Shown in pieces: positions 16,914 through 53,846 of a stretch of 64,000 nucleotides of DNA (the first letter of the stretch is position 1; each line of letters begins with the position of its first letter). Under the pieces are notes generated by a model that was given only the letters and a program-made list of their open reading frames with translations, made no database searches and was not told the origin of the DNA. Source of the stretch: a virus. Lineage: Duplodnaviria > Caudoviricetes. The stretch lies in the IMG/VR virus record IMGVR_UViG_3300028833_000086, positions 58,738 to 122,737 of that record; one strand, given 5' to 3'. Both the position numbers and the translations under genes were made by a program.

Positions 16914-18098
16914 ATGCTTAAAGGTGTTCGTATTAGGATATATCCTAATAAAACGCAGAAAAAGTTAATATCGAAAACCTTTGGCTGTTGTAGGCTTATT
17001 TACAATAAAGGTCTTGCTTTGCGTAAAGATACCTATGAGTCTACAAAGGAATCTATTGGTTATAAGGAAACCAGCGCTATGCTTACGGCTTTAAAGAAAG
17101 AGGATGATTTCTCTTTTTTAAAGGAAGTAGACTCCGTATCTTTACAACAATCCTTACGGGATTTAGATAAAGCATATAAGAACTTTTTCCGTACAAAGAC
17201 AGGATATCCTAAATTTAAGTCAAAGCATAATCCTTTACGCAATTATCGTACTCAAAATGTAAATAATAGTATTTGTGTTACTTTGGATGGCAAGCATATT
17301 AAGTTGCCTAAATTAGGCTATGTAAAGGCTAAATGCTCATACGACCTCACCTCTGCTAAAATTAATAATGCTACGATAGAACAACTACCAAGTGATAAAT
17401 ATTACTGTGTTCTTAATATCGAAGTAAAAACACCTACGTATACCAATGATGGTTGTATGGTAGGTATTGACCTTGGTATTAAGGATTTCTATACCGATAG
17501 CAATGGTTACAAATGTCCTAACCATAAATGGATTGCTAAATCTATAGCTAAACTCCGTAAAGAGCAACGGAAACTTTCTAAAATGATAGAAAGTCATATT
17601 GTAGAGTATAAAATCATTAAAGGTTATAGACATCCTGTATATGATAAACCGCTATCAGAATGTAAAAATATCCAAAGACAGCGTATCAAGGTAGCAAAAA
17701 TACAAGAACATATTGCTAACCAAAGAAACGACTTCTTACAAAAAGAGTCAACCAAACTTGTGAAAGAAAACCAAATCATAGGTTTAGAAGACTTAAATAT
17801 TAGAGGAATGGTTCGTAATCATAAGTTAGCAAAATCCATTTACGATGTATCGTGGTCAAAGTTTGTATCCATGCTCAAATACAAAGCACCTTTGTATGGT
17901 ACAGAGATCATTAAAGTACCAAGGTTCTATGCAAGTAGCCAACTTTGCAACTGTTGTGGCTATCAAAACAAGGAAACTAAAAATCTTCTTGTTAGAGAAT
18001 GGACTTGTCCAGTCTGTGGTACTTACCACGATAGAGATGAAAATGCTGCTATCAATATTTTAAATAAGGCTTTAGAAATTAGGAATAAGGTTGCCTAA
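16914..18098 (+). CDS. tnpB: TnpB RNA-guided nuclease (IS200/IS605 family)
   Basis: HTH_OrfB N-terminus (RIYPNKTQ..L...FGC.R..YN), RuvC D (GIDLG), E (LEDL), D (HDRDENAA), CxxC..CxxC zinc finger. Confidence 0.92.
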
Positions 18099-35915: not shown

Positions 35916-36158
35916 ATGAACACTAATGAAGATGTGGTAAATCATCCCAGTCATTATACTGCTGGGAAGTATGAAGTAATTGATATGATTAGTGAGATTG
36001 TGGGACATTATGAAGGAGAGGTGGCGTATGATCTTGGCAATACAATAAAGTATATATCTCGTGCAGGGCTAAAGAATCCTGATAAATTAGTCGAAGATTT
36101 AAAAAAGGGACGTTTCTATTTAGATCGTGCTATAAAAAAACTTGAAGAGAGTACTTGA
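35916..36158 (+). CDS. DUF3310-domain protein
   Basis: D.VNHPSHY, GN.IKY..RAG.K and EDLKK...YL. Confidence 0.85.
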   Translation: MNTNEDVVNHPSHYTAGKYEVIDMISEIVGHYEGEVAYDLGNTIKYISRAGLKNPDKLVEDLKKGRFYLDRAIKKLEEST

Positions 36159-36183
36159 CATTATAACAATAATATGTTAATAT
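36155..36183 (+). promoter_or_regulatory. sigma-A promoter driving the RNA island
   Basis: TTGACA-17-TAATAT with TG extension. Confidence 0.7.
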
Positions 36184-36189
36184 ATAATT

Positions 36190-36263
36190 GATGAGGGGCG
36201 TTAAGTCCTGTTCATGTTTTTACCTCCTAGAGTCGGGGCGGAGGTGTCGCAAGCCTCCGCCTC
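36190..36263 (+). ncRNA. candidate sRNA with anti-SD/anti-AUG sequence
   Basis: 5' hairpin, then CATGTTTTTACCTCCT, then GC-rich hairpin GGGGCGGAGG/CCTCCGCCTC. Confidence 0.55.
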
Positions 36264-36282
36264 ATATGGTCTAATCATATAA

Positions 36283-36355
<73 letters not shown>

Positions 36356-36738
36356 GTTCAACCGCAGTAATACTTGAATTGACAAGTTATGTCGGGCAAC
36401 AGGGTTGACCGTAGCGGTGCGGTTTCTTCTCGTCTGTACCAACAGGATTAATAAAACAGATATATAGGTTGTAAAGAAGGTGATCCTGACTAAATAGTCT
36501 AAAAACCATCTTCGGTGCTATGAGACCGAGAATCTCATAAGGTTCTCCCTAAGAACTGAAATTAGGCGTATGGAGAGATTGCAGAGCATCGCTCATCCTC
36601 ACTCCACCCCACGAAAATGGTAATTAAAGATGACTGAGAGATGTGTGTAGTGAGAGCGACGAAGAGGACAACATAAGACTCTAACCTCCCATGGCGTAGT
36701 TATGGTTCTGCGTGTGCATGGGGATAAAAACCAACTAA

Positions 36739-36855
36739 GCCCAAACAGTTTGCTATTGTACGTACAAGATGGTAACTTGGCGTGACGCAATATAAAGGTC
36801 GGCTCTGATCTTATCATAACCAATCAGGGCGTAGGTTCGAATCCTACTTTGGGCG
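36739..36855 (+). ncRNA. tRNA-like RNA A (acceptor stem and T-arm with non-canonical core)
   Basis: GCCCAAA/TTTGGGC acceptor stem and GTAGG-TTCGAAT-CCTAC T-arm; 117 nt. Confidence 0.6.
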
Positions 36856-37023
36856 TGATCCTAATCCGAGAATCCTAGGAATGGCAAAAGCTGAAATGCT
36901 ATGTCTACTCGGAGGGCGCGAGCTAATCCGCGAACGAAAGCTGGTCACAGCCCCTTGATTGGAGGCATGAGTATCTTTGAGACAGGAATCCTAGCGATAG
37001 GACGAAAGATATATGGGGCAAAT

Positions 37024-37126
37024 CGGTGAGTGGTGTAATGGTAACACGGCAAGGCTTTTATTCTCCTGTTGCTTACAAAACTTTTCCAAAAATTCGCAGA
37101 TGTTGGTTCAATCCCAGCCTCACCGA
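37024..37126 (+). ncRNA. tRNA-like RNA B (expanded anticodon arm)
   Basis: CGGTGAG/CTCACCG acceptor, GTGT-AATGGTA-ACAC D-arm, GTTGG-TTCAATC-CCAGC T-arm; 49 nt in place of the anticodon arm. Confidence 0.65.
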
Positions 37127-37323
37127 TGTTAAGTGAGAATTAAATGTTGCAGAAAACCAGAGGGTTAGAAGGAGCAACACTGATATGGTGTTGGAGCCTG
37201 ATTACTAGTTTCGATGAGAGGACGCTCTTGCAACAGCTAGCATTTTAAATATAATAATACAAACCAAACATAACGAGGACAATTCCATTAATGACATAAA
37301 GGATGTTTGTAGGAAAGGAGTTT

Positions 37324-37995
37324 ATGGAATGTTTGGTTTGTGGTAAAAAATTAGAAAAGAAACAAACAAAATATTGTTGTAAAGAACATGAAAAAATAAG
37401 CAAAAGAAATAGAGTGGTACAAGCTTGGTTAAATGGTGAAGATCTAGGATATTCAGGTACTGGAATTAAACATTTTATAAGAGATTATCTTTTAGAAAAA
37501 GCTAATTATAAATGTGAAATATGTGGATGGGGGAAAATTAATCCATATAATGGGACATATCCATTAGAAATACACCATAAAGATGGAAATTACAAGCATA
37601 ATACCTTAGATAATTTGCAAGTACTTTGCCCTAATTGTCATAGTTTAACAGATACTTATAAAAGTATGAATAAAGATAGCGTTCGAGATAGAGGTAAATA
37701 CATTGGTAGAAAGAAAGATGTAAGTAATATATGTGTAGATTGTGGCGCAAAAATTTATTACAAATCTGTAAGATGTAGATCTTGTGAATCAAAAAGAAGG
37801 GATAAAATAATAGCAGAAGTAAGAGTCCCAAGAGAAGAATTAAAACAACTTATAAGAACAAAACCATTTTTACAAATTGGTAAAATGTTTAATGTAACAG
37901 ATAACGCTATTCGTAAATGGTGTGATAAATATAAGTTACCAAGAAAGAAATCAGTTATTAATTCTTATTCTGATGCAGAATGGAATTTAATATAA
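37324..37995 (+). CDS. free-standing HNH endonuclease with zinc fingers and C-terminal HTH
   Basis: CEICG...LEIHHKDGN..N...NL..LCPNCH; IGKMFNVTDNAIRKW. Confidence 0.88.
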   Translation: MECLVCGKKLEKKQTKYCCKEHEKISKRNRVVQAWLNGEDLGYSGTGIKHFIRDYLLEKANYKCEICGWGKINPYNGTYPLEIHHKDGNYKHNTLDNLQVLCPNCHSLTDTYKSMNKDSVRDRGKYIGRKKDVSNICVDCGAKIYYKSVRCRSCESKRRDKIIAEVRVPREELKQLIRTKPFLQIGKMFNVTDNAIRKWCDKYKLPRKKSVINSYSDAEWNLI

Positions 37996-38001
37996 ATAAT
38001 T

Positions 38002-38072
38002 GCCGCCATCGTCCAATGGTAAGACTTGACACCTGTAATGTCAGTATCCCCGTCCGAATCGGGGTGGCGGCT
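38002..38072 (+). tRNA. tRNA-Thr(UGU), atypical (C33, T-loop TCCGAAT)
   Basis: GCCGCCA/TGGCGGC acceptor, TGACA-ccTGTaa-TGTCA, CCCCG/CGGGG T-stem. Confidence 0.75.
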
Positions 38073-38217
38073 GAGGTTGGGTCATACCCAAATGATCTGA
38101 GCGAGAGCAGGACACCTCAGAGAGAATAACAATGCCGAGAAAGGTTGCTCACGGAATAAGATGTGTTTGTGAGAATGTAATGAAAACACTACATATTTTC
38201 CCTATCGGAACTGCCCA

Positions 38218-38301
38218 GCTGGTGTGATGGAATTCGTAGACATACGGGATTTAAGTTCCCGTGAAGGAAACTTCGTGTGGGTTCAAATCCCACCACCAGC
38301 A
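38218..38301 (+). tRNA. tRNA-Leu(UAA)
   Basis: GCTGGTG/CACCAGC, CGGGA-ttTAAgt-TCCCG, long variable arm, GGTTCAAATCC. Confidence 0.9.
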
Positions 38302-38305
38302 CTTA

Positions 38306-38387
38306 GCTATCATGGTGGAATTGGTAGACACGCCAGACTCAAACTCTGGTGGAGAGATCCGTGCAAGTTCGATCCTTGCTGATAGCA
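38306..38387 (+). tRNA. tRNA-Leu(CAA)
   Basis: GCTATCA/TGATAGC, CCAGA-ctCAAac-TCTGG, variable arm, T-arm. Confidence 0.9.
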
Positions 38388-38486
38388 CTAGCCCTCTGTA
38401 GACTTTGGTTGGTTCAGTGAAAGACAGCGTTTGCGGACGTGTGATGAGTAGAGATGCGTCTCGAAAATCTTAATTGCGAAAGGCAC

Positions 38487-38515
38487 TTGACATTATAATA
38501 AAAATATGTTAGTAT
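38487..38515 (+). promoter_or_regulatory. sigma-A promoter for the second half of the RNA island
   Basis: TTGACA-17-TAGTAT with TG extension; near-copy of the 36155 promoter. Confidence 0.7.
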
Positions 38516-38522
38516 TATAAAG

Positions 38523-38604
38523 GGTCGTTCGGGCGACCATAAATAGACTTCTAAGCCCGAAGCGTTTACGATTTTCCTGAGGTCAGCAAAATCGTAAGGC
38601 AAGT
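38523..38604 (+). ncRNA. pistol self-cleaving ribozyme
   Basis: P1 GGTCG/CGACC; loop TTCGGG pseudoknots with CCCGAA; conserved TAAATAG; P2 ACTT/AAGT; TAAG-pk-GCG; P3 TTTACGATTTT/AAAATCGTAAG; scissile dinucleotide G38599-C38600. Confidence 0.85.
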
Positions 38605-38761
38605 ACGGTGGAACAGAGGTCGCGAACTCTGGTGGGATAGTAGTATGGGATTGCTGCTATTCGTCCTAAAGGTAAGATGGTTTAAACTAAAACAATCCTA
38701 CCGTCTTATCAGTGGTAGTAGAAGGCCATTATAACGCGAGGTCAACGGCTATCACAAACAT

Positions 38762-38836
38762 CGCGGGATGACGAGCAATTGGAAGCTCACTTGGCTCATA
38801 ACCAAGAGCATGTCAGTTCAAGTCTGACTCCCGCAA
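38762..38836 (+). tRNA. tRNA-Met(CAU), initiator-like (C1:A72)
   Basis: CGCGGGA/TCCCGCA, GAGC/GCTC D-stem, CTTGG-ctCATaa-CCAAG, GTTCAAGTC. Confidence 0.85.
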
Positions 38837-38838
38837 CT

Positions 38839-39180
38839 CGGTTGAAATGTCTTCTGTCATCGTTCCCAAATGACCAGTAGTTCTGGGGAAAAGCAGACGA
38901 ACGAGAGTCTGATCAACTCTCCTATCTGTAAAGGTTCGAAACATGATAGAACGCATACTAAGCCGTCACAATTGCGAGTCGGCTCCGCTAACCGACACTT
39001 TCGAGGTAAGCCAAATAACGGTTAATTGGGCGATAACTCAGGTGCGCAGTGGTCATTGCGCTATACAAATGAGTAGGACAGGTTAGTAGTCTTTTAGGGT
39101 AGCGCCGAAGAGTGAGGATGGGGATCTCGTCCAAGGACACGTATGCTAGAGCCCACTGCTAGTGCTACAAGTGTGGGATA
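38839..39180 (+). ncRNA. unassigned ~340 nt highly structured RNA
   Basis: no ORF; many helices (GCATAC/GTATGC, GCGCAGTG/CATTGCGC, GTCGG/CCGAC, GAGAG/CTCTC, CCCAC/GTGGG); bounded by tRNAs. Confidence 0.55.
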
Positions 39181-39181
39181 T

Positions 39182-39253
39182 AGCCCCTTCGCCAAGTGGT
39201 AAGGCAACGGATTTTGGTTCCGTTATTCACTGGTTCGAATCCAGTAGGGGTTG
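39182..39253 (+). tRNA. tRNA-Gln(UUG)
   Basis: GCC-AAGTGGTAA-GGC D-arm, ACGGA-ttTTGgt-TCCGT, GGTTCGAATCC. Confidence 0.9.
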
Positions 39254-39260
39254 TTTACAT

Positions 39261-39331
39261 AGGGGCTTGGTGTAATGGTAGCATAGCGGTCTCCAAAACC
39301 GCAGGTGGGCGTTCGAGTCGCTCAGTTTCTG
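39261..39331 (+). tRNA. tRNA-Trp(CCA)
   Basis: GCGGT-ctCCAaa-ACCGC, GTTCGAGTC; acceptor stem with three G-U pairs. Confidence 0.85.
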
Positions 39332-39529
39332 TTTGATTCATCAAAAATGATGAGTCGAAAAAAGGAAGTCAATCAACAACTAATTGGAAACGGAGTTGCA
39401 AATCCTAACCAAAGATGTCAGCCTTGGAGAAAGGTCTGTAAAGTGGGTCAGATAGTCAGAGCCTGAAAACCATGCATGCAAAAGACCAAGATAAGTGGCT
39501 TGGGTGGAAATGACAAAAGTTGATTGAAT

Positions 39530-39707
39530 TGAGTGGTGGCAGAAAGGGTAAACGCAAATACAAATTCACGAGGATTCAGCAGTTAACGGTTGGCGGTCAT
39601 GCGAGAATTGAGACTACGTGCCGAAAAAGCGGAACCAGTTGGAGAACATTATACTCAAATCGTGAAGAAAAAGACCGTATGTAAGGTTCGAATCCTTACC
39701 CACTCAT
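39530..39707 (+). ncRNA. tRNA-like RNA C (tRNA shell around a ~120 nt domain)
   Basis: TGAGTGG/CCACTCA acceptor, class-II-like D-arm TGGCAGAAAGGGTAAACGC, GTAAGG-TTCGAAT-CCTTAC T-arm, inner helix TTCACGA/TCGTGAA. Confidence 0.65.
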
Positions 39708-40862
39708 TTGCCGAAATGGGCGCGACAGGCTCGTAAGACCTTTGGCAGAGTCATTAAAATCAAAGACACCAACAAATGAGAAGCGTTTGGTGCGGTAGGC
39801 AAATTTACTCTCTTGCTTATTGCTTGGGGCTATAAAGGCTTCGTCTACTGAGCCAGATCAGTGGACAATTAACAAAATAATAATATCTTAGGAGTTTACT
39901 ATGCAATACAAAGCAATCTTTGATTTACCTGATGATGTAACCCCTCCACGAACTGTAGGGTTTCAGTTTGGGATTATGGTGCAAACTGATCAAGGGATTA
40001 AGTATCAACCAAAAATCTATACGGCGGTTCTCATGCCAATCAAATCCCCACTCGAAGAATGGGAGGATCCCAATGAAACAAATGACAATTGACGATGAAG
40101 ACGCTACGGCAAACGTTAGACGTAATCCATTTGGTATATATGTACCAGAACAAACGAATCAACAATATACAATTCCTGAGGTTTGTAAGAATTGTAATAA
40201 TCATCCGTCAAATGGTGGTAGCGGAGTATGTTGGTGTACTTTAGGTGTAGTATCAGTAACTTGTTGAGGTAAGTTATGACAAGAGAAAAAGCACTGGAAA
40301 TAATTAAAGACATATCAGGATCGGTGGTATATCCAGAACAATTACCCTGCAAATATAAAACTGCTGAGGTACTTGAGGCTGTAGATACATTTGCGGATAC
40401 AATTGATCAACTTCGTAAGGCGCGTAAAAAGGCGCGCAGATATAAACGCATGTTTGTGCGACTTAAACATGCACAATGCAATAGTGAAAAAATAATGGAG
40501 GAAATAAAAGATGAATAAAAATTATAACCCTACACCTGTTTATAACCGCAAGTATGCACGCGAAGTTATCCGTGCTCAGGTACTTAAAAAGAATGGATAT
40601 CATAATGTTAGTAAGACTATGAGTCTTATGTTTAAGATGATGCGTAAGCGTGCACAGGAGGCGGCAGAATGAAACATACAATAACATTTAACACACCAGC
40701 AGAGATTAAAGAGATCCATGACATCCGCGTATCTTTTCTCGATCAGGATGATAAAGCTTACTTCCTAAATGTCAAAGCTAGTACAAAGGTTGAAGAGGTA
40801 AACAATATTAACTGGAAGATTGCAGCAAGAATTAAAGAGCTTAATGAGGATAAGGAGTAATT

Positions 40863-41182: not shown

Positions 41183-44100
41183 ATGAAAGAATATTATAAT
41201 TATCACAAACATTCTCATATATCAAATATCTTTACGATAGATTCTACCACACGTAACAAGCAGTATGCTGAACGAGCTGTTGAGCTCGGACATACTGCTC
41301 TTTCGACGTGCGAACATGGAACGTTCGGAGACATTTTTGAGTGTCGTACTTTGGCAAATGAGTATAATCTTAAATGTTTACCAGTTGCGGAATTTTATAT
41401 GGTTAAAAATGCGGATCCTGATCTTAAGGATAAGCGTAATTATCATATTATAGTAACACCTAAAACCAATGTTGCCCGTAAAAAGTGTAATTATATTTCT
41501 TCTATGGCAAATATAGAAGGATATTATTATAAGCCTAGGATAGATGTGGCTCATTTGCTTACTCTTGATCCTGATGATGTATATATAACCACAGCATGTG
41601 TAGCTGGTATGCTTCGCGACGAAGAAGGGATTAATGATATTTTTCTCCCATTGTTTAATCATTTTAAGGAGAATATTCTTTTAGAAGTTCAGAATCACAT
41701 CGATCCTAAACAGATCGAGATTAATAAAAGAGTTCTGGATTTCCAAAAAGAATATGGGCTTAAAATCGTTGCTGCAAATGATTCTCATTATATAGATGAT
41801 GAAGGAAGAATACAACGTGACGAATTACTACGTGGGAAAGGTATGAAATATGAGGAAGAGTCTGGCTTTATACTTGACTACCCTGATTATGATACTATGT
41901 TTGGCCGCTTCATTCAGCAAGGCGTGCTTTCAGAATCCCAGATAGAAGAAGCTATTGACAATACAATGATACTTACAGGCGTGGAAGAGATTAATCTCGA
42001 CCACTCAATTAAGATGCCTACAATAGATCCTGATCTTACTCCAGCTGAACGTGTAGCAAAGCTTAAGAAGATAGTGAACCACAGATTTACTCAGATAGTT
42101 AAAGACGAACATATCGAAGGTGAAGATTTTAAGAGATACAAAGACGGTATCCGTTATGAAATGGATATTATTGAGAAGACCAACGATGAAATACATACTG
42201 CTGATTACTTTCTTCTCAACACAAAACTTGTTGACTTAGCGGTAAATAAGTATGGCGGTGTTCTTACTCGCGGAGGCCGTGGATCATGCGCAAGTTTCTA
42301 TATTAATCGTATATGCGGAATGACACAGCTTGATCGCTTTAAAATCAATCTGCCTATATTCCCCGATAGATTTGCATCCACGGCACGTTTGCTTGAGAAT
42401 AGAGCATTGCCCGACATTGATTATAACGTTGAGACTCAGGAACCTTTTGTTAAGGCAGCACGTGAATTACTTGGAGAGCATGGTTGTTATCCTATGTATA
42501 AAACTGGAAACTTTCAACTCAAAGAAGCATTTAAAAATCTATGTCGTAGTAAAGGAATAGATTTTGAAACAAGTAATCAGATTAGTGCTGATATAGATAA
42601 ATATAGAGAAGATCCTGAATGGGGAGATTTAATTACCGAAGCCGAAAAATATGTAGGAGTTATTTACTCTGCAAGTGTCCATGCATGTGCTCACCTTCTT
42701 AGCAATGAAGACATTCGTTATGAGTATGGTGTATTAAGATTTGGTGATGTATTATGTGTCCTTATAACCTCAGCAGAAGCTGATGAATATAAAGTACTTA
42801 AAGACGACTTTCTTATTGTAACTGTTTGGCATCTTATTGCCGAAACATTTAAGGCTATTAATCAACCTATTATGCCAGCACGTGAATTACTAAATGCTAT
42901 AAAAAACGATGAAGAAGTATGGAAGTTGTTTACTAATGGAATGACTTGTACTCTTAATCAGGTGGATTCTTCTAATGGTACGCAACAAGCAAAAAGATAT
43001 GGTATAAAATCTTTTGAAGAAGGTGCTTTATTAGCAGCCGCTATTCGTCCCTCATTTGATTCATGGCGTGAAAAGTTTTTAAATCACGAAGATTATACTA
43101 CGGGCTCAAAACAACTTGATGATGTACTTAATTCTACTGGTGGTTATATATTATTCCAAGAAAATCTTATGGAATACTTTCAATGGCTTGAAATTACTCC
43201 TGCAGAATCCATTGGGTTAATAAAAAAGATCAGTAAGAAAAAAATCAAACCTCAAGATTTTGCTAAACTTGAAAAAAGAATTAGGAAAGTATGGATAGAA
43301 AAGACTGGATCAGAAGATATGTTTGATGAAACTTGGGGTATGATTCAAAGTTGTATGAGCTATGGATTTTGCGTATCAGGAGATACTAAACTTGTAAGAA
43401 ATGGTAATGGTAAATACCAACCTACCATTGAAGAAATGTATAACATAAAGAATGATAGGAAATACGCTGTAGAACAAGGACATCTACCTCTCTATAGTAA
43501 ATATCGTTCTTATGGTTATGGCAAAGCATTGTCTTTATATGATGATGGTTTTGTTCATGAAAATACAATTGAAGATATATATTTTACTGGAATAAGACAA
43601 ACATATAAAATTATTACCGAAAGTGGTAAAACTATCAAATGTACTGATAATCATAAATTTCCTACTCCTAATGGGGTGGTTGAATTAAAAGACTTACAAG
43701 TCGGAGATCAATTATATACTATAGATTCATATCAAGAAAGAGAACACAGTTATAGATTGACCAAAGATTTTGAACCTAATTATCCTAAAGTAGGACAGGA
43801 GGGATTTCAAAGACGAGAGGACGGAGCCTCGGTTGTATTTGAAAGAGAAAGACAAAAACATAAAGATAATCAGGATCGCTGTGAAAAATGTAGGTGTCAG
43901 TATAATATCGATTTTGAACTACATCACATAGATTTGGATCGAACTAATAATGATCCTAGTAATTTTGCATGGTTATGTAACTCTTGCCATAAGAAAGTAC
44001 ACTATGAACAGGATAGGAATAAAAGATATGAAAGAGGATTAACGATTAAACTTGACAAAATAATATCTATTGAAAAAGATCAAATCGAAAAAGTTTATTC

Positions 44101-45124
44101 TGTTTCTATGTCTGATCCTGCTCATAATTATGCAGTTAATGATGGTATTATTACACATAATTGCAGTGCACATGCAGCTGCAACCTCACTTGATATGTGT
44201 TATGGGGCATATCTTAAGGTTCATTACCCTCTTGAATATTATACTGTGTGCTTTAATACATATTCAGATGATGCAGATAAAACAGCCAGATTAACACAGG
44301 AATTGGATTATTTTGGTATTAAAATTAAAAATATTAAATTTAGATATTCAATGGGAGATTATACCTTTGATCGTAATACAAACAGTATTTATAAAGGTAT
44401 GGCATCTTTACCTTATCTTTCCTCAAAGGTTGCTGAAGAACTTTATGCACTCAAGGACAATCAGTATTCTGATTTTATCAAAGTTCTTTGTGATATAAAG
44501 AGCAACACATCTGCCGACTCGCGCCAGATAGATATACTTATCAAACTTGATTTCTTCTCAGAGTTTGGTGAGATTAATGATCTATTAGATATTAAAAACA
44601 AGTGGGAAAAATATTCAAATAGAAAGACCGTTAAAAAAGATAGTGATATGCTTAAAGTGCTCGGTATTGATAATGTGCGCGCTCATTCTGAGAAAGAGAC
44701 TGAGAAACAATTTTCAGGTGTGAATATGCATGCCGTATTTACAGACTGGTTAAGTAGCAGAGAAAATATTCCCACTAGTCTATTTGATAAAATGGATTAT
44801 GAAGCAGAGTATCTTGGTTACGTATCGTCTATAGATCCTGATATTAAATCCAATTACTGGTACGTAGTTGATGTGGGCGGATATAGCAAGAATGTACTTG
44901 ATTTGTACCAGATATGTGACGGACAAACTCAAACTATTAAAATAGATAAAAATTATATTATAAAAAAGGGTGATGTAATCCATATACTTGAATATACTGA
45001 TAGACCCAAATGGCGCAAGACTGGCGAAGATCCAGAAACTCATAAACCTAAATTTGAAAAGACTGGTGAGACTGAAAGAGTGATTGGTAAAATTGCACCA
45101 GTAAATCGACGCAAATGCTCTTGA
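41183..45124 (+). CDS. dnaE: DNA polymerase III alpha subunit (PHP + DnaE) containing an intein
   Basis: YH.H, EHG and NDSHY PHP motifs; GRGS, PDID, HA and K.DFL; YGF/C.AH...YLK.HYP.EYY. Confidence 0.92.
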   Translation: MKEYYNYHKHSHISNIFTIDSTTRNKQYAERAVELGHTALSTCEHGTFGDIFECRTLANEYNLKCLPVAEFYMVKNADPDLKDKRNYHIIVTPKTNVARKKCNYISSMANIEGYYYKPRIDVAHLLTLDPDDVYITTACVAGMLRDEEGINDIFLPLFNHFKENILLEVQNHIDPKQIEINKRVLDFQKEYGLKIVAANDSHYIDDEGRIQRDELLRGKGMKYEEESGFILDYPDYDTMFGRFIQQGVLSESQIEEAIDNTMILTGVEEINLDHSIKMPTIDPDLTPAERVAKLKKIVNHRFTQIVKDEHIEGEDFKRYKDGIRYEMDIIEKTNDEIHTADYFLLNTKLVDLAVNKYGGVLTRGGRGSCASFYINRICGMTQLDRFKINLPIFPDRFASTARLLENRALPDIDYNVETQEPFVKAARELLGEHGCYPMYKTGNFQLKEAFKNLCRSKGIDFETSNQISADIDKYREDPEWGDLITEAEKYVGVIYSASVHACAHLLSNEDIRYEYGVLRFGDVLCVLITSAEADEYKVLKDDFLIVTVWHLIAETFKAINQPIMPARELLNAIKNDEEVWKLFTNGMTCTLNQVDSSNGTQQAKRYGIKSFEEGALLAAAIRPSFDSWREKFLNHEDYTTGSKQLDDVLNSTGGYILFQENLMEYFQWLEITPAESIGLIKKISKKKIKPQDFAKLEKRIRKVWIEKTGSEDMFDETWGMIQSCMSYGFCVSGDTKLVRNGNGKYQPTIEEMYNIKNDRKYAVEQGHLPLYSKYRSYGYGKALSLYDDGFVHENTIEDIYFTGIRQTYKIITESGKTIKCTDNHKFPTPNGVVELKDLQVGDQLYTIDSYQEREHSYRLTKDFEPNYPKVGQEGFQRREDGASVVFERERQKHKDNQDRCEKCRCQYNIDFELHHIDLDRTNNDPSNFAWLCNSCHKKVHYEQDRNKRYERGLTIKLDKIISIEKDQIEKVYSVSMSDPAHNYAVNDGIITHNCSAHAAATSLDMCYGAYLKVHYPLEYYTVCFNTYSDDADKTARLTQELDYFGIKIKNIKFRYSMGDYTFDRNTNSIYKGMASLPYLSSKVAEELYALKDNQYSDFIKVLCDIKSNTSADSRQIDILIKLDFFSEFGEINDLLDIKNKWEKYSNRKTVKKDSDMLKVLGIDNVRAHSEKETEKQFSGVNMHAVFTDWLSSRENIPTSLFDKMDYEAEYLGYVSSIDPDIKSNYWYVVDVGGYSKNVLDLYQICDGQTQTIKIDKNYIIKKGDVIHILEYTDRPKWRKTGEDPETHKPKFEKTGETERVIGKIAPVNRRKCS
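43370..44161 (+). mobile_element. intein (264 aa) with an HNH endonuclease domain, in DnaE
   Basis: starts CVSGDT; block B I.CT.NH.F; HNH ELHHID....NN...N...LC..CH; ends GIITHN followed by Cys+1. Confidence 0.9.
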
Positions 45125-45306: not shown

Positions 45307-46639
45307 CAAGAAATCCCCCACCTCTATAGGTGGTGGGATGAATTACGTGAGGTAGTCAATGAATAGAGCAATAAAGTACAGAGTATATCCTACAACTGAA
45401 CAATCTGTTATGTTTACTAAGACTTTTGGTTGTTGTCGTAAGGTCTATAATCTTATGCTTTCGGATAAGATTGAAGGCTACAAGGTTACTGGCAAGTTTC
45501 CTACTGTTACGCCTGCCAAATATAAGAACGATTACCCTTATCTAAAGGAAGTAGACAGCCTCGCCCTTGCCAATAAGCAGATGGACTTGCAAGAGGCGTT
45601 TCGCAATACATTTAGTAAATCCCGTAAAAAGAAAAACGGATTTCCTAAATTCAAATCTGCAAAGCATAGTCGTAAGTCCTATACTACTAATAATCAAAAA
45701 GGCACTGTTGCTATCATAGAGAATAAATATATCAAGCTTCCTAAGATTGGTAAAGTAAAAGCTGTTATCCATCGCATTCCTGATAGCGATTGGATTATTA
45801 AATCCGCTACCGTATCACAGGAATCAGACGGCAAATATTATATTTCTGTTCTCTTTGAGTTCGACAATGTCACAAATTTTTATGTAGCAGATAAGACCAA
45901 TGCTATCGGATTAGACTACGCTTCTAATAGCTTATATGTAGATAACAACGGTAACGTAGGAACTGATCACAAATATTACCGTGAGAGCCATGATAAACTT
46001 GCTAAAGCGCAGCGTAAGCTATCACGTATGCAAGGCTCTAAGAAACACGAGGTTAAATCCAATAATTATATAAAACAACTCCGTAAGGTAAACAAAATCC
46101 ATAGACACATCTCTAATCAGCGTCTAGATAATCTGCATAAGATATCTACTGAGATAGCCAATCAGTATGATGTTGTATGTGTGGAGTCCTTAAACATGAG
46201 GTCTATGGCAAATCATGGCTTCGGTAACGGCAAAGCTACCCTTGATAACGGTTATGGTATGTTCCTGTCTATGCTTGAATACAAGCTATCTGATAGGAAT
46301 AAGTATCTTGTCAAAGTAGATAAGTGGTTCCCGTCATCACAGATATGTCATTGTTGCGGAACAATACATCCAGAAATGAAGGATTTAGCTATTCGTAAAA
46401 TGGTATGCGATTGTGGTCTTACGATGAATCGTGACCAAAATGCAGCTATCAATATCCTAAACGAAGGATTACGATTGATTACTGAGGTAGCATAAAAACA
46501 AAATATTACAGTAGGGATGGAATAGCCCGAACTTATACGCCTGTGGACACTGTGTAAGACGAATGATTACGTATATCGTAGCCAGCGCAGTAGTGGTTGA
46601 AGCAGGAAGCTCCGACTTCTATAAGTCGGAGTAGTTCAC
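45307..46639 (+). mobile_element. non-autonomous IS200/IS605-family element (TnpB only, IS1341-like)
   Basis: left-end hairpin CCCACC-TCTATA-GGTGGTGGG; right-end hairpin CTCCGACT-TCTATA-AGTCGGAG then TTCAC; no tnpA. Confidence 0.85.
45359..46495 (+). CDS. tnpB: TnpB RNA-guided nuclease
   Basis: KYRVYPT..Q....KTFGCCR.VYN; GLDY, VESL and RDQNAA RuvC motifs; zinc finger. Confidence 0.92.
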   Translation: MNRAIKYRVYPTTEQSVMFTKTFGCCRKVYNLMLSDKIEGYKVTGKFPTVTPAKYKNDYPYLKEVDSLALANKQMDLQEAFRNTFSKSRKKKNGFPKFKSAKHSRKSYTTNNQKGTVAIIENKYIKLPKIGKVKAVIHRIPDSDWIIKSATVSQESDGKYYISVLFEFDNVTNFYVADKTNAIGLDYASNSLYVDNNGNVGTDHKYYRESHDKLAKAQRKLSRMQGSKKHEVKSNNYIKQLRKVNKIHRHISNQRLDNLHKISTEIANQYDVVCVESLNMRSMANHGFGNGKATLDNGYGMFLSMLEYKLSDRNKYLVKVDKWFPSSQICHCCGTIHPEMKDLAIRKMVCDCGLTMNRDQNAAINILNEGLRLITEVA

Positions 46640-50102: not shown

Positions 50103-50727
50103 ACTTATCAGAAATAAAAAGCTATCAAAGAAGTACGGTAATTGGATCAGAGTAAGGTGGTGGGATTGGAAAAAGGGATTTTATAAATATGCTGATGATT
50201 ACTTAAACGAATATGACGCATTTAGTAGAGGTTGGGGTATGCTTTGGAACATGATGATTGCAGATTTAGCACCTCTTATGCGCAAGTATAATTTGCAGGA
50301 TAAATTTTTCTTTGAGGAAATTAAAGAAAAATACGGAGAGATTCGAGCATATCACAATGGGGCGCCCGATGAAATAGAAGACATAATCGATGCATACTCA
50401 GTTATCTCGCGCAATGTGTGTCAGTGGTGTGGACGTCCTGACAGTGCAATTAGTAAGGGGTATTGGGTGGAGTGTCAGTGTGAACAATGCTTCGATAAAT
50501 ATTGGAAAAATAGTACCAAAGAGCATCCTTCTTACGACGAACAATACGACACCAATCCTGAAAACTGTAGGATACCAGACGTTCGTAGGGTTACACACTT
50601 TAGTAAGGATGGGAATGAAACGATTGAATACAACATAAAGGATATAGCGGATAGATATAGGAATAAATGGAATAACAAGGAAAGACGAAAGAAAGCGAGG
50701 CAAAAAATGAATGGAGTTAGTAATTGA
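50062..50727 (+). CDS. conserved phage protein (GW...KEK.G..R.Y...C..CG family)
   Basis: motif IKEKYGEIRAY...CQWCG...C..C. Confidence 0.6.
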   Translation: MSAKRKKARAKISELIRNKKLSKKYGNWIRVRWWDWKKGFYKYADDYLNEYDAFSRGWGMLWNMMIADLAPLMRKYNLQDKFFFEEIKEKYGEIRAYHNGAPDEIEDIIDAYSVISRNVCQWCGRPDSAISKGYWVECQCEQCFDKYWKNSTKEHPSYDEQYDTNPENCRIPDVRRVTHFSKDGNETIEYNIKDIADRYRNKWNNKERRKKARQKMNGVSN

Positions 50728-53700
50728 CAAAAGAGATGGTCGGAGACAAAACTTCGACAAAGACAAAATTGTGAATGCAATGGTTAAGGCTTGTAAGGCA
50801 GAACGCGGCGAAGCAGACGAGGAGTTTGTGGCGTACGCTAACAAGGTGGCTGATAGTATTGAGGAATTGGTTAAAGGTTCATGGGTGGTAAAGGATCATA
50901 AGGTACTGTCAGTTGAGGATGTGCAGGATATCATTGAGAATAAGTTGATGGCATCCAGATATAAGGATGTGGCAAAACAATATATTCTTTATCGAGATAA
51001 AAGAGCACGTTCAAGAGAATATAATTCTGACTTTATGAAAGAAGTTACTCGCAAGATAATCGCCGAAGATGTTGAAAACCAGAACGCCAATGTGGACGAG
51101 AGATCTTTTGGTGGACGTAAAGGTGAAGCGGAAAGTGTGTTGATGAAGAAATATGCTCTTGATAATTGCGTATCAGAACTTGCAAGAAAAAGACATTTAA
51201 ATAATGAGATTTATATTCACGATCTTGATAACTACGCCGTAGGTATGCATAATTGTTTAACAATTCCCTTTGACGATATCCTTGCTAAGGGGTTTAACAC
51301 TAGACAGACAGATGTACGTCCAGCAAATAGTGTTAATACAGCGTTTCAACTGGTTGCCGTAGTATTTCAGTTGCAGTCTCTTCAGCAATTTGGCGGAGTT
51401 TCCGCGAGTCATTTGGATTGGACTATGGTGCCATATGTGAGGAAAAGTTTTAGAAAACATTTCAAAGATGGAATGTATTATATAGAAAATGCAAGTATAT
51501 TTAAAGAAACAAGTGATGGAGTTATAGATACTTGGAAATCTGCAGAAGAAATGAGCATTGATGCTCCAGAATATAAAATGTTTCCTAAAGCATATCAATA
51601 TGCTATGGATATGACAATTAAAGAAACGTGTCAGGCGGTCGAGGGTATGTATCACAATCTTAATACTCTTCAGTCTAGATCTGGAAATCAGTTGCCATTT
51701 ACCTCAATCAACTATGGGACTTGCACATTACCTGAGGGGAGAATGGTTATCAAAGCTCTTCTCGAAGGTAGTATTAAGGGCGTGGGCAAATATCATAAAA
51801 CAAGCATCTTCCCTTGTGGTATTTTCCAACTTATGGAAGGTGTCAATAGAAAAGAAGGAGATCCTAATTATGACCTCTTTAAACTTGCCCTTGAGTCCAC
51901 AGCAAAGAGATTATATCCCAACTATGCAAACTGTAATTGGAGCGGAAATGCTGGATATGATCCAAACGATCCTAGAACATATTTTAGCACCATAGACAAA
52001 CTTGTGGCTTAATACAGAAATGTATTTCGAAAACTTATCTAAACGGGGAAAATCTTAATATTTTAGTTCGGATATTAAGACAACCCAGTGTTAAATTACA
52101 ATATTACGTATGCTTTTCTATGAGGTGATGATATGGAAGAATGGAAAAGCATTGATGAATTAGATAACAAATATGAGATCAGTTCATTAGGTAATGTAAG
52201 AAATGTTAATACTGGAAAAATCCTAACTGGAGATATAAATAACATAGGATATAGAAGAATTACATATAACAAAAAGCATTACTTTATACATAGACTAGTG
52301 GCAAAATATTTTGTCGAAGGATATGAAGAGAGACTGGTTGTTAATCATAAGGATGGGAATAAACTTAACAATACAAAAGATAATTTAGAATGGGTAACTA
52401 GATCAGAAAATGACCTTCATGCATTCAGATTACATTTAAGAAAAACCTATCCTTGTACACACAAACACAAAGTAATAAGATTCGATCTTGACACAAATGA
52501 AATATTACAAGTTTATGAAAATACAACTCAATGTAGCGAGGATTTAAATGTGGCAAGATCAAACGTATACAACACTTGCAATGGCAAGCAAAAAAGTTGC
52601 AAAGGTTTTGGATTGAAGTATGCGTGATATTGTATAAAAACTAAACGACTATCGAAAGTATAACTTAAATGAAATATTTAGGTGAATAAATGAGTAGAGT
52701 ACATCCAAGCGGATGGAAAAGATAAGGTTCTTATAGAGGATAAAACAATATAAGAATGTGATATAGTCTGAACTTTGCGGTGACGTAAAGAAGTTCATAA
52801 GAGAACTGCGTAGGAGTAGCGAACCTACGTGAACATATTGGGGATGTAGAACTGCCAATGGATACGATATTAACGGTTTTGGTCAGCTCAAAGATGGAAG
52901 AGGAAATATCTGCCCTGTAACTATCATCATGCCCACCTTAGCAATGGAAGTCAAAGAAGAGATATCTTCTTATTCAAATGTATCATCTGATGAAGATCTT
53001 ATTATTACTGGGTTTATGAGTCATTTAAGCCAAGCAATAGATGACGCCAAAGATATGCTTATAGAACGCTTTGAATATATTTGTTCACAAGATCCATCCT
53101 CTGCAAAGTTTATGTATGAGAATGGCACTATGGCTGGATATATTCCTGAAGAAGGAATCCGTTCTGCCCTTAAGCATGGGACTCTTGCTATAGGACAAAT
53201 AGGTCTCGCTGAGACGCTGCAGATCCTTATTGGTTGTGATCATACAACAGAGAAAGGAATGGAATTAGCTAAGCGTATTGAACAGCTATTTAAAGATCGC
53301 TGTGCTGAATTTAAAGAAGAATATAAACTTAACTTCGGTGTATATATGACCCCCGCTGAAAATCTTTGTTATACAAGTATGAAGAAGTTTCAAGCTAAGT
53401 ACGGTAAGATTCCCAATGTTTCTGATAGAGATTACTTTACCAATTCAATTCATGTTCCTGTATGGAAAGAAGTATCTCCATTTGAGAAGATTGATATTGA
53501 AAGCCAGTTAACAGGATATAGTTCTGCTGGATGTATAACATATGTTGAATTTGATTCGGCTGTAGTTGACAATATAACAGCGCTTGAAACTGTGGTAAAC
53601 TACGCTATGGATCATGATATACCTTATTTTGCTGTTAATGTTCCTAACGATTTATGCAGAGATTGTGGATTCACCGGTCTTATAGATGATGCATGCCCTC

Positions 53701-53846
53701 AATGCGGTGGCAAACATATTGACAGATTACGTAGGGTTACAGGCTATTTAACTGGAGATTACAAGACAGCGTTCAATCTTGGAAAACAAAAAGAAGTTGA
53801 AGACAGATATAAACATAGTCAAAAAATGAGAGGATATAAAACATGA
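50711..53846 (+). CDS. nrdD: anaerobic ribonucleoside-triphosphate reductase, split by a group I intron (exons 50711-51993 and 52841-53846)
   Basis: ATP-cone (KRDGR..FD..KI), IYIHDL, NC; splicing restores TYFSTMGCRT; TPAE, YFTNS, RRVTGYL glycyl-radical motif; 762 aa when spliced. Confidence 0.93.
51994..52840 (+). mobile_element. group I intron in nrdD
   Basis: 5' exon ends in U, paired U-G in P1 (CCATA/TGTGG); P7 elements AACGACTA (~52643) and ATATAGTC (~52761); ends in G; removal restores the frame. Confidence 0.9.
52133..52627 (+). CDS. intron-encoded NUMOD4-HNH homing endonuclease
   Basis: EEWK.I....YEISS.G.VR; HRLVA..F; VNHKDGNK.NN...NLEW.T..EN. Confidence 0.9.
   Translation: MEEWKSIDELDNKYEISSLGNVRNVNTGKILTGDINNIGYRRITYNKKHYFIHRLVAKYFVEGYEERLVVNHKDGNKLNNTKDNLEWVTRSENDLHAFRLHLRKTYPCTHKHKVIRFDLDTNEILQVYENTTQCSEDLNVARSNVYNTCNGKQKSCKGFGLKYA

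Follow-up and report, generated by a model that had tools for sequence, protein, structure and literature searches.

A pistol self-cleaving ribozyme set between a phage promoter and a conserved structured RNA probably forms part of a processing cassette, in which the ribozyme makes the 5′ end, and RNase P the 3′ end, of a cargo RNA of ~155-160 nt. The unit lies on the plus strand of the window (the whole 64,000-nt stretch analyzed), which is the right half of the 122.7-kb IMG/VR virus record IMGVR_UViG_3300028833_000086, a record that is 97% complete. The ribozyme and the RNA are located within a 3.7-kb, nearly gene-free island of tRNA genes and structured RNAs, flanked by the replication module and the DNA polymerase gene. 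Our searches place the phage in sheep gut and rumen samples. Exact and gapped pattern scans of IMG/VR identified the same promoter-pistol-RNA-tRNA unit in 5 further phage contigs. The six loci compared here (the window, L002, L003, L004, L005 and L006) comprise just 4 distinct sequences from one narrow rumen-phage clade, so that several of the covariations reported below represent single events.

A pistol ribozyme in a phage RNA island

The first-pass annotation, made from the letters alone, had recognized a pistol ribozyme at this site and had proposed a search with the Rfam model as a check. This search confirmed the identification: RF02679 matched positions 38523-38583 with 43.6 bits, where the gathering score is 34.5; the E-value was 1.2e-4 when the 64-kb window was searched and 5.4e-8 when the genome was. 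Scores above the cut-off were obtained in the window and 4 relatives (44.8, 37.8 and 36.9 bits in the relatives). Direct reading of the sequence located every listed pistol element at the position given in that annotation. P1 is formed by 38523-27 and 38534-38 and closes a 6-nt loop (38528-33, UUCGGG), which forms a 6-bp pseudoknot with 38556-61 (CCCGAA) in the 5′-strand junction between P2 and P3. The A-rich linker between P1 and P2 (38539-46, A-U-A-A-A-U-A-G) contains the three conserved adenosines whose role in pistol ribozymes has been described (PMC8495972), and its A run is kept in L005 and L006. P2 consists of 4 bp (38547-50 with 38601-04). It is followed by a C at position 29 (C38551), by UAAG (38552-55), which holds purine 32 (A38554) and G33 (G38555), and, directly after the pseudoknot strand, by the GCG motif (G40-C41-G42, 38562-64). 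P3 has 11 bp (38565-75 with 38588-98) and a 12-nt loop (38576-87). The active-site bases A38554, G38555, G38562, C38563 and G38564 are present in all six loci, except for a change of A32 to G in L005 and L006, a change reported to leave pistol ribozymes active.

The Rfam alignment of the window compresses P3 and deletes the 3′ strand of P2 (positions marked "vvvv"), and the match stops at 38583 because the model cannot accommodate the long P3. The true 3′ end of the predicted self-cleaving ribozyme is 38604, and the fold drawn in the first-pass annotation fits better than the Rfam alignment. The ribozymes of L005 and L006 have diverged: three pseudoknot pairs are swapped on both sides, a G-C pair in P1 is replaced by A-U, and P3 is shortened to 5 bp, with G-C replacing U-G. 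Across the six sequences, 100% of the alignment cells in the pistol segment pair.

The pseudoknot-containing hammerhead (PMC11300833) has essentially the secondary structure and connectivity of the pistol ribozyme and was considered as an alternative class. It is characterized by the core loop C-U-G-A-U-G-A, by GAAA and by cleavage after C, a base other than G (PMC11300833). The ribozyme in the window has the loop C-U-A-A-G, GCG after the pseudoknot and G at position -1; the hammerhead assignment was rejected because of this different core sequence. Other ribozymes were sought in the RNA island and none was found. As a separate observation, L004 is otherwise nearly identical to the window, but its P3 loop reads as the exact reverse complement of the window loop; the loops of L002 and L003 also match that reverse complement apart from one base. 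This difference looks like a hairpin-loop inversion and shows that the loop is unconstrained in sequence, whereas the stem is retained.

A conserved four-hairpin RNA downstream of the ribozyme

The segment between the predicted cut site and the tRNA (38600-38761) begins with a 14-nt 5′ tail (38600-13) that is identical across the six loci. Three hairpins had been named in the first-pass annotation, and all of them proved real and covarying: H1 (38614-31), H2 (38635-62) and H3 (38671-38710). Beyond these, the comparison revealed a fourth hairpin, H4 (38712-55, with an inner stem of 38724-27 and 38740-43), and a loop-loop contact between the H2 loop (38647-52) and the 3′ portion of the H3 loop (38694-99). 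In L002 a pair of this contact has changed from A-U to U-A. A 6-nt spacer (38756-61) separates H4 from the tRNA. The H1 loop (38619-38626) contains the 6-nt palindrome UCGCGA (38620-25), and the corresponding loop of L005 and L006 reads UUGCAA, with two changes that preserve the palindrome.

To evaluate the structure as a whole, the six sequences were aligned over 70 pairs covering the pistol and the downstream RNA. Pairing was retained in 98.3% of the cells, and 17 of the 70 pairs had changed on both sides, namely 1 in P1, 3 in the pseudoknot, 1 in P3, 4 in H1, 1 in H2, 4 in H3, 2 in H4 and 1 in the loop-loop contact. Shuffled controls predicted 5.5 ± 1.8 changes of this kind (0 of 500 shuffles reached 17), and controls with slid partners gave at most 2. 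The four-hairpin segment also folds with z = -4.2. It has no Rfam family: on this strand, covariance model searches at E<10 returned just the pistol and the tRNA, and searches at E<1 across 36000-40300 returned nothing for the RNA. Judged from its conservation and covariation, the segment 38600-38761 is a real four-hairpin RNA of ~155-160 nt that represents a new conserved phage RNA family.

Several other features of this segment were considered and rejected. A small protein encoded by the only reading frame, of 29 codons from 38645, was discarded since indels of 1 and 2 nt disrupt this frame and no stop codon is shared; the segment is non-coding. A long-range closing helix in the minimum free energy fold (38606-10 with 38759-63) is lost in L002 and L003 and overlaps the tRNA, and a pairing of the H1 loop with the 5′ strand of tRNA-Met is absent from L005, L002 and L003. 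The phage genome was also searched for an antisense target of the invariant 5′ tail, and no match exceeded the control.

RNA-library data were available as contigs, which show presence but cannot show ends, strand or level. One 120-nt contig from a sheep-gut metatranscriptome matches 38619-38718 exactly (100 nt). Among the RNA-library contigs, none covers the pistol or bridges 38600, and these data are accordingly uninformative on cleavage and ends. Separately, a second RNA between tRNA-Met and tRNA-Gln (38849-39136), which matches no Rfam family, occurs exactly in contigs of three sheep-gut RNA libraries, in pieces of 228-288 nt.

Predicted cleavage site and a probable paired variant of the active site

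The cut is predicted between G38599 and C38600. The Rfam model covers the ribozymes of L005 and L006 (44.8 bits) and that of L242 over their full length, with "GC" lying over the consensus "GU" junction, and these full-length alignments fix the predicted site, which was transferred to the window by alignment. An independent parse agrees with it. The two bases form a strictly two-base junction between the end of P3 (38598) and the start of P2 (38601). By homology, the cut site proposed in the first-pass annotation is thus the expected one, and its remark that the scissile step is G-C instead of G-U can be read directly from G38599 and C38600. The G-U step has been described as "modestly conserved", with a strict junction length and varying base identity (Harris 2015, PMC4604425). 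The G-C step is therefore a known kind of variation and is of no concern for the pistol identity.

The variant extends to a second position. Structural papers describe U29 as conserved and as pairing with U(+1), which extends P2 and sets up the in-line attack. In all six loci these positions are occupied by C38551 and C38600, which replaces the U29·U(+1) pair with C·C. Approximately 20 IMG/VR pistols were pulled by a generic pattern and parsed; in this small and pattern-biased sample, U29 accompanies U(+1) in 11 pistols, C29 accompanies C(+1) in the window clade and in the unrelated L358, and C29 occurs with A(+1) in L278. A mixed U/C combination at 29 and +1 was found in none of the ~20. Because positions 29 and +1 change together, also in L358, the G-C step reads as a natural variant involving both positions rather than a defect. 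By Harris 2015, the U29·U(+1) pair is not a defining feature of the class.

The C·C replacement could nevertheless slow the reaction. The extreme form of this concern is that C29 and C(+1) render the pistol inactive or very slow, so that it would be a relic and the RNA would take its 5′ end from a host nuclease or simply keep a primary 5′ end. The structural role ascribed to the conserved U29 in pairing with U(+1) for in-line attack is the argument for this view. We regard it as very unlikely, given that cut-site bases vary among natural pistols in the Harris 2015 survey, that the same C29 and C(+1) combination recurs in L358, and that the compensatory upkeep of the pseudoknot, P1 and P3 is hard to square with a dead ribozyme.

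Promoter and predicted transcript start

A sigma-70-type promoter (38487-38515) precedes the ribozyme, with a -35 box TTGACA (38487-92), a 17-nt spacer, an extended -10 TG (38507-08) and a -10 box TAGTAT (38510-15). Despite differing upstream flanks, L002, L003, L005, L006 and L240 share the -35 box, the spacing and the TGn-TAnTnT pattern. The DNA upstream of the -35 box falls into two differing groups, and the promoter is kept in every relative. P1 begins 6-7 nt past the -10 box, in agreement with the earlier observation that the ribozyme directly follows a promoter, and the match to conserved promoter boxes suggests a transcript start near P1. No terminator-like site was detected on the plus strand between tRNA-Leu (38388) and the promoter, so that read-through from the upstream tRNAs may be a second source of precursor and the "+1 of a transcript" of the first-pass annotation may be one of two origins. 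The type of promoter and the known distribution of pistol ribozymes point to a Firmicutes-like host.

A near-identical promoter is found at 36155-36183; it has the TG motif, the -35 box and most of the spacer in common with that at 38487-38515. These twins suggest that the RNA island is transcribed from promoters of a phage-specific class, and in L240 the same promoter precedes tRNA-Met.

tRNA genes adjoining the unit

As the first-pass annotation had indicated, a tRNA-Met (CAU) starts at 38762; ARAGORN calls it at 38762-38837 on the plus strand, and its Rfam tRNA score is 38.3 bits. In each of the six loci, 6-7 nt separate H4 from a following tRNA, which is tRNA-Met in four and a Gln-like tRNA in L002 and L003. 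The Gln-like tRNAs that replace tRNA-Met (L002:6816-6886 and L003:1524-1594) have a UUG anticodon loop and a non-standard T loop; they received no call from ARAGORN, and their Rfam scores are 43.5 and 44 bits. The tRNA-Met of the window is itself unusual. Its acceptor and D stems are separated by two additional bases, it shares the C1/A72 mismatch of bacterial initiator tRNA, and its Rfam score is low; the same form is found in L004, L005, L006 and L240.

Other tRNA-like sequences were also noted. ARAGORN annotated L003:2086-2169, L005:169-252 and L006:795-878 as an 84-nt "tRNA-???" with a two-base anticodon (ca), and these genes score ~50 bits with the Rfam tRNA model. Directly before the one in L003, at L003:1980-2084, lies a near-threshold match to the Rfam "drum" model (41.1 bits against a cut-off of 43). 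In the window, 37024-37126 is a 103-nt full-length Rfam tRNA match (41.7 bits) without an ARAGORN call, corresponding either to a tRNA with an insert or to a look-alike.

Distribution among related phages

Wider scans added no relatives, which indicates that the clade is narrow. Two 14-base motifs of the RNA, scanned singly in IMG/VR, gave ~230 loci, all of which were chance matches by nhmmer. The three-part RNA pattern matched 2 metagenome contigs, both already among the known relatives, and had zero matches in 185,579 species genomes; these metagenome-contig and species-genome scans thus yielded no further relatives and no prophage or host link. BLAST against 50,697 phage records returned nothing except a match to tRNA-Met.

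Within the clade, all 6 loci share the order promoter-pistol-RNA-tRNA despite the differing tRNA (Met or Gln-like) and upstream flanks, and the pistol and the RNA occur in a single copy per genome. A contrasting arrangement is found in G001, a complete (100%) relative of 129.6 kb with 85% identity in the DNA polymerase. This genome carries the same promoter directly before the same tRNA-Met, but neither the pistol nor the downstream RNA was detected anywhere in it. The joint absence indicates that the ribozyme and the RNA are gained or lost as one block, and the presence of tRNA-Met without them indicates that the tRNA is independent of both.

Such presence or absence as one block among close relatives, together with the two different flanking contexts and an island and genome rich in mobile elements (HNH genes, TnpB-like genes and an intein), would also suit a selfish or drifting insertion cassette that brings the phage no benefit and persists because it is harmless between promoter and tRNA. 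This explanation is quite unlikely in our view. The compensatory changes in P1, the pseudoknot, P3 and H1-H4 show purifying selection on structure, and the ends of the element carry no second ribozyme, repeat or integrase-like feature, with one copy per genome.

A model for processing of the RNA

The first-pass annotation had further proposed that the pistol frames an RNA extending to tRNA-Met. The conserved structured RNA and its coupling with the ribozyme in six loci bear out one part of this proposal, and its excision is the probable but conditional part. In the processing model that we favor, transcription would start at the promoter at 38487-38515, and the first ~77 nt of the presumed transcript would fold as the pistol, which, as homology and covariation suggest, would cut co-transcriptionally between G38599 and C38600. 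Cleavage by pistol-class ribozymes yields a 2′,3′-cyclic phosphate upstream and a 5′-OH downstream. The small ribozyme piece would accordingly carry the cyclic phosphate and the downstream RNA the 5′-OH. Since P2 has just 4 bp and the C·C pair, the ribozyme piece would be expected to fall off, exposing the invariant 14-nt single-stranded 5′ tail. The RNA always ends 6-7 nt before the tRNA, and RNase P cleavage at the tRNA 5′ end would therefore set its 3′ end. Processing is predicted to release a discrete RNA of ~155-160 nt, with four hairpins and the loop-loop contact, that would act as the functional cargo. The presence of a ribozyme would be explained by the lack of any host enzyme that sets the 5′ end of this RNA, as one does for a tRNA, and the ribozyme would give an identical 5′ end whether the precursor came from its own promoter or from upstream-tRNA read-through.

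The suggestion in the first-pass annotation that a 5′-OH shields the precursor from decay is doubtful and depends on the host. In Bacillus subtilis, the 5′-OH product of the glmS ribozyme is a substrate and entry point of RNase J1 (PMC3328962). Because a 5′-OH in Firmicutes invites RNase J1, the released RNA may need its own structure or a partner for survival. The phage lacks RtcB, a ligase that could rejoin 5′-OH and cyclic-phosphate ends.

The same property of RNase J1 can be turned into a different explanation, in which the pistol serves the tRNA operon by cutting read-through transcripts and starting 5′-to-3′ removal of the leader, the conserved stretch being a cis-acting tRNA leader that aids or times maturation. 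The lack of a terminator-like site on the plus strand between tRNA-Leu and the promoter is compatible with this explanation, as are the constant abutment of the RNA on a tRNA with a 6-7-nt spacer and the use of a 5′-OH as an RNase J1 entry point in B. subtilis. We nonetheless consider it unlikely, because G001 has the same promoter before the same tRNA-Met with neither leader nor ribozyme, the same RNA precedes two different tRNAs, and four covarying hairpins, a loop-loop contact and invariant single strands exceed what a disposable leader needs.

Returning to release of a cargo RNA by the pistol, one speculative extension concerns what the RNA would do. It could conceivably be a small self-assembling phage RNA, an idea to which we give a low probability. 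The H1 palindrome might mediate a kissing dimer, and the pairing of the H2 and H3 loops might occur between molecules, giving a dimer or a ring, with the exact 5′-OH tail required for assembly or for binding a host target. The phi29 pRNA and the ROOL and GOLLD cages would be analogues of such an assembly.

Comparison with known systems

The ribozyme shares P1, the pseudoknot, the linker, P2, P3 and the two-base junction with the pistol class (RF02679; Weinberg 2015; Harris 2015, PMC4604425; env25 structure 5K7C), and its phage location is that of many members. It differs from the class in its long P3, in which the 11 bp are followed by a mismatch and 3 more bp, and in the replacement of U29·U(+1) by C·C. 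Its setting is also distinct: it lies behind a promoter, before a structured RNA and in a tRNA cluster, whereas most of the sampled phage pistols precede protein genes. For the latter reason, a role in making RNA 5′ ends cannot be generalized to the class, and the 5′-end role proposed here may be one of several.

Theta (minimal HDV-like) ribozymes are likewise small self-cleaving ribozymes of phage tRNA regions and are proposed to participate in the maturation of a neighboring RNA (PMC10879173). They belong to a class and fold different from those of the pistol in the window. They also sit immediately downstream of tRNAs, whose 3′ ends they release, whereas the pistol lies 5′ of a non-tRNA RNA and is predicted to free the 5′ end of that RNA.

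The downstream RNA can be likened to species 1 and 2 of phage T4 (rnaC and rnaD), which are small stable non-tRNA RNAs located in a tRNA cluster and processed from a common precursor; this likeness is one of gene setting and processing. No ribozyme is known to take part in the processing of rnaC and rnaD. Structured phage RNAs near tRNA genes are also represented by ROOL and GOLLD, which are 500-800 nt long and are reported to self-assemble through loop contacts. The RNA described here is ~155-160 nt, and the Rfam models of ROOL and GOLLD gave no match at the locus.

Pistol ribozymes have been studied in chemical detail, and the pistol literature cited here assigns them no natural role. The present locus, with its promoter, ribozyme, structured RNA and tRNA, would offer a concrete and testable job for a pistol. 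Should cleavage at 38600 be confirmed, the locus would clearly exemplify a pistol that makes the 5′ end of a non-coding RNA, a role that would complement that of the theta ribozymes processing phage tRNAs. The locus also adds a new family of conserved phage RNAs that form tertiary contacts and, for mechanistic study, a natural C·C replacement of the U29·U(+1) active-site pair.

Other genes and mobile elements of the phage

Several genes elsewhere in the phage are interrupted or carry signs of mobile elements. The anaerobic ribonucleotide reductase gene NrdD (50711-53846) is split into two ORFs, 50711-52012 and 52929-53846, separated by an HNH/NUMOD endonuclease gene (52133-52627). The arrangement resembles an intron that carries a homing endonuclease; Rfam searches detected no group I intron. 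In the 1313-aa DNA polymerase (41183-45124), HNH-endonuclease matches at residues ~873-995 suggest an intein or the insertion of a homing-endonuclease domain. Outside the window, a 670-aa ORF (G000:C1:47147-49159; L363:1156-3168, minus strand) encodes an RNA-ligase-family domain (PF09414) together with an intein splicing domain and a LAGLIDADG endonuclease; this intein-interrupted gene has no shown link to the pistol locus. Finally, the window contains two IS605 OrfB/TnpB-like genes, one at 16914-18098 with matches to Cas12f1-like TNB, OrfB_IS605 and HTH domains, and one at 45359-46495 with a match to a PHROG transposase family.
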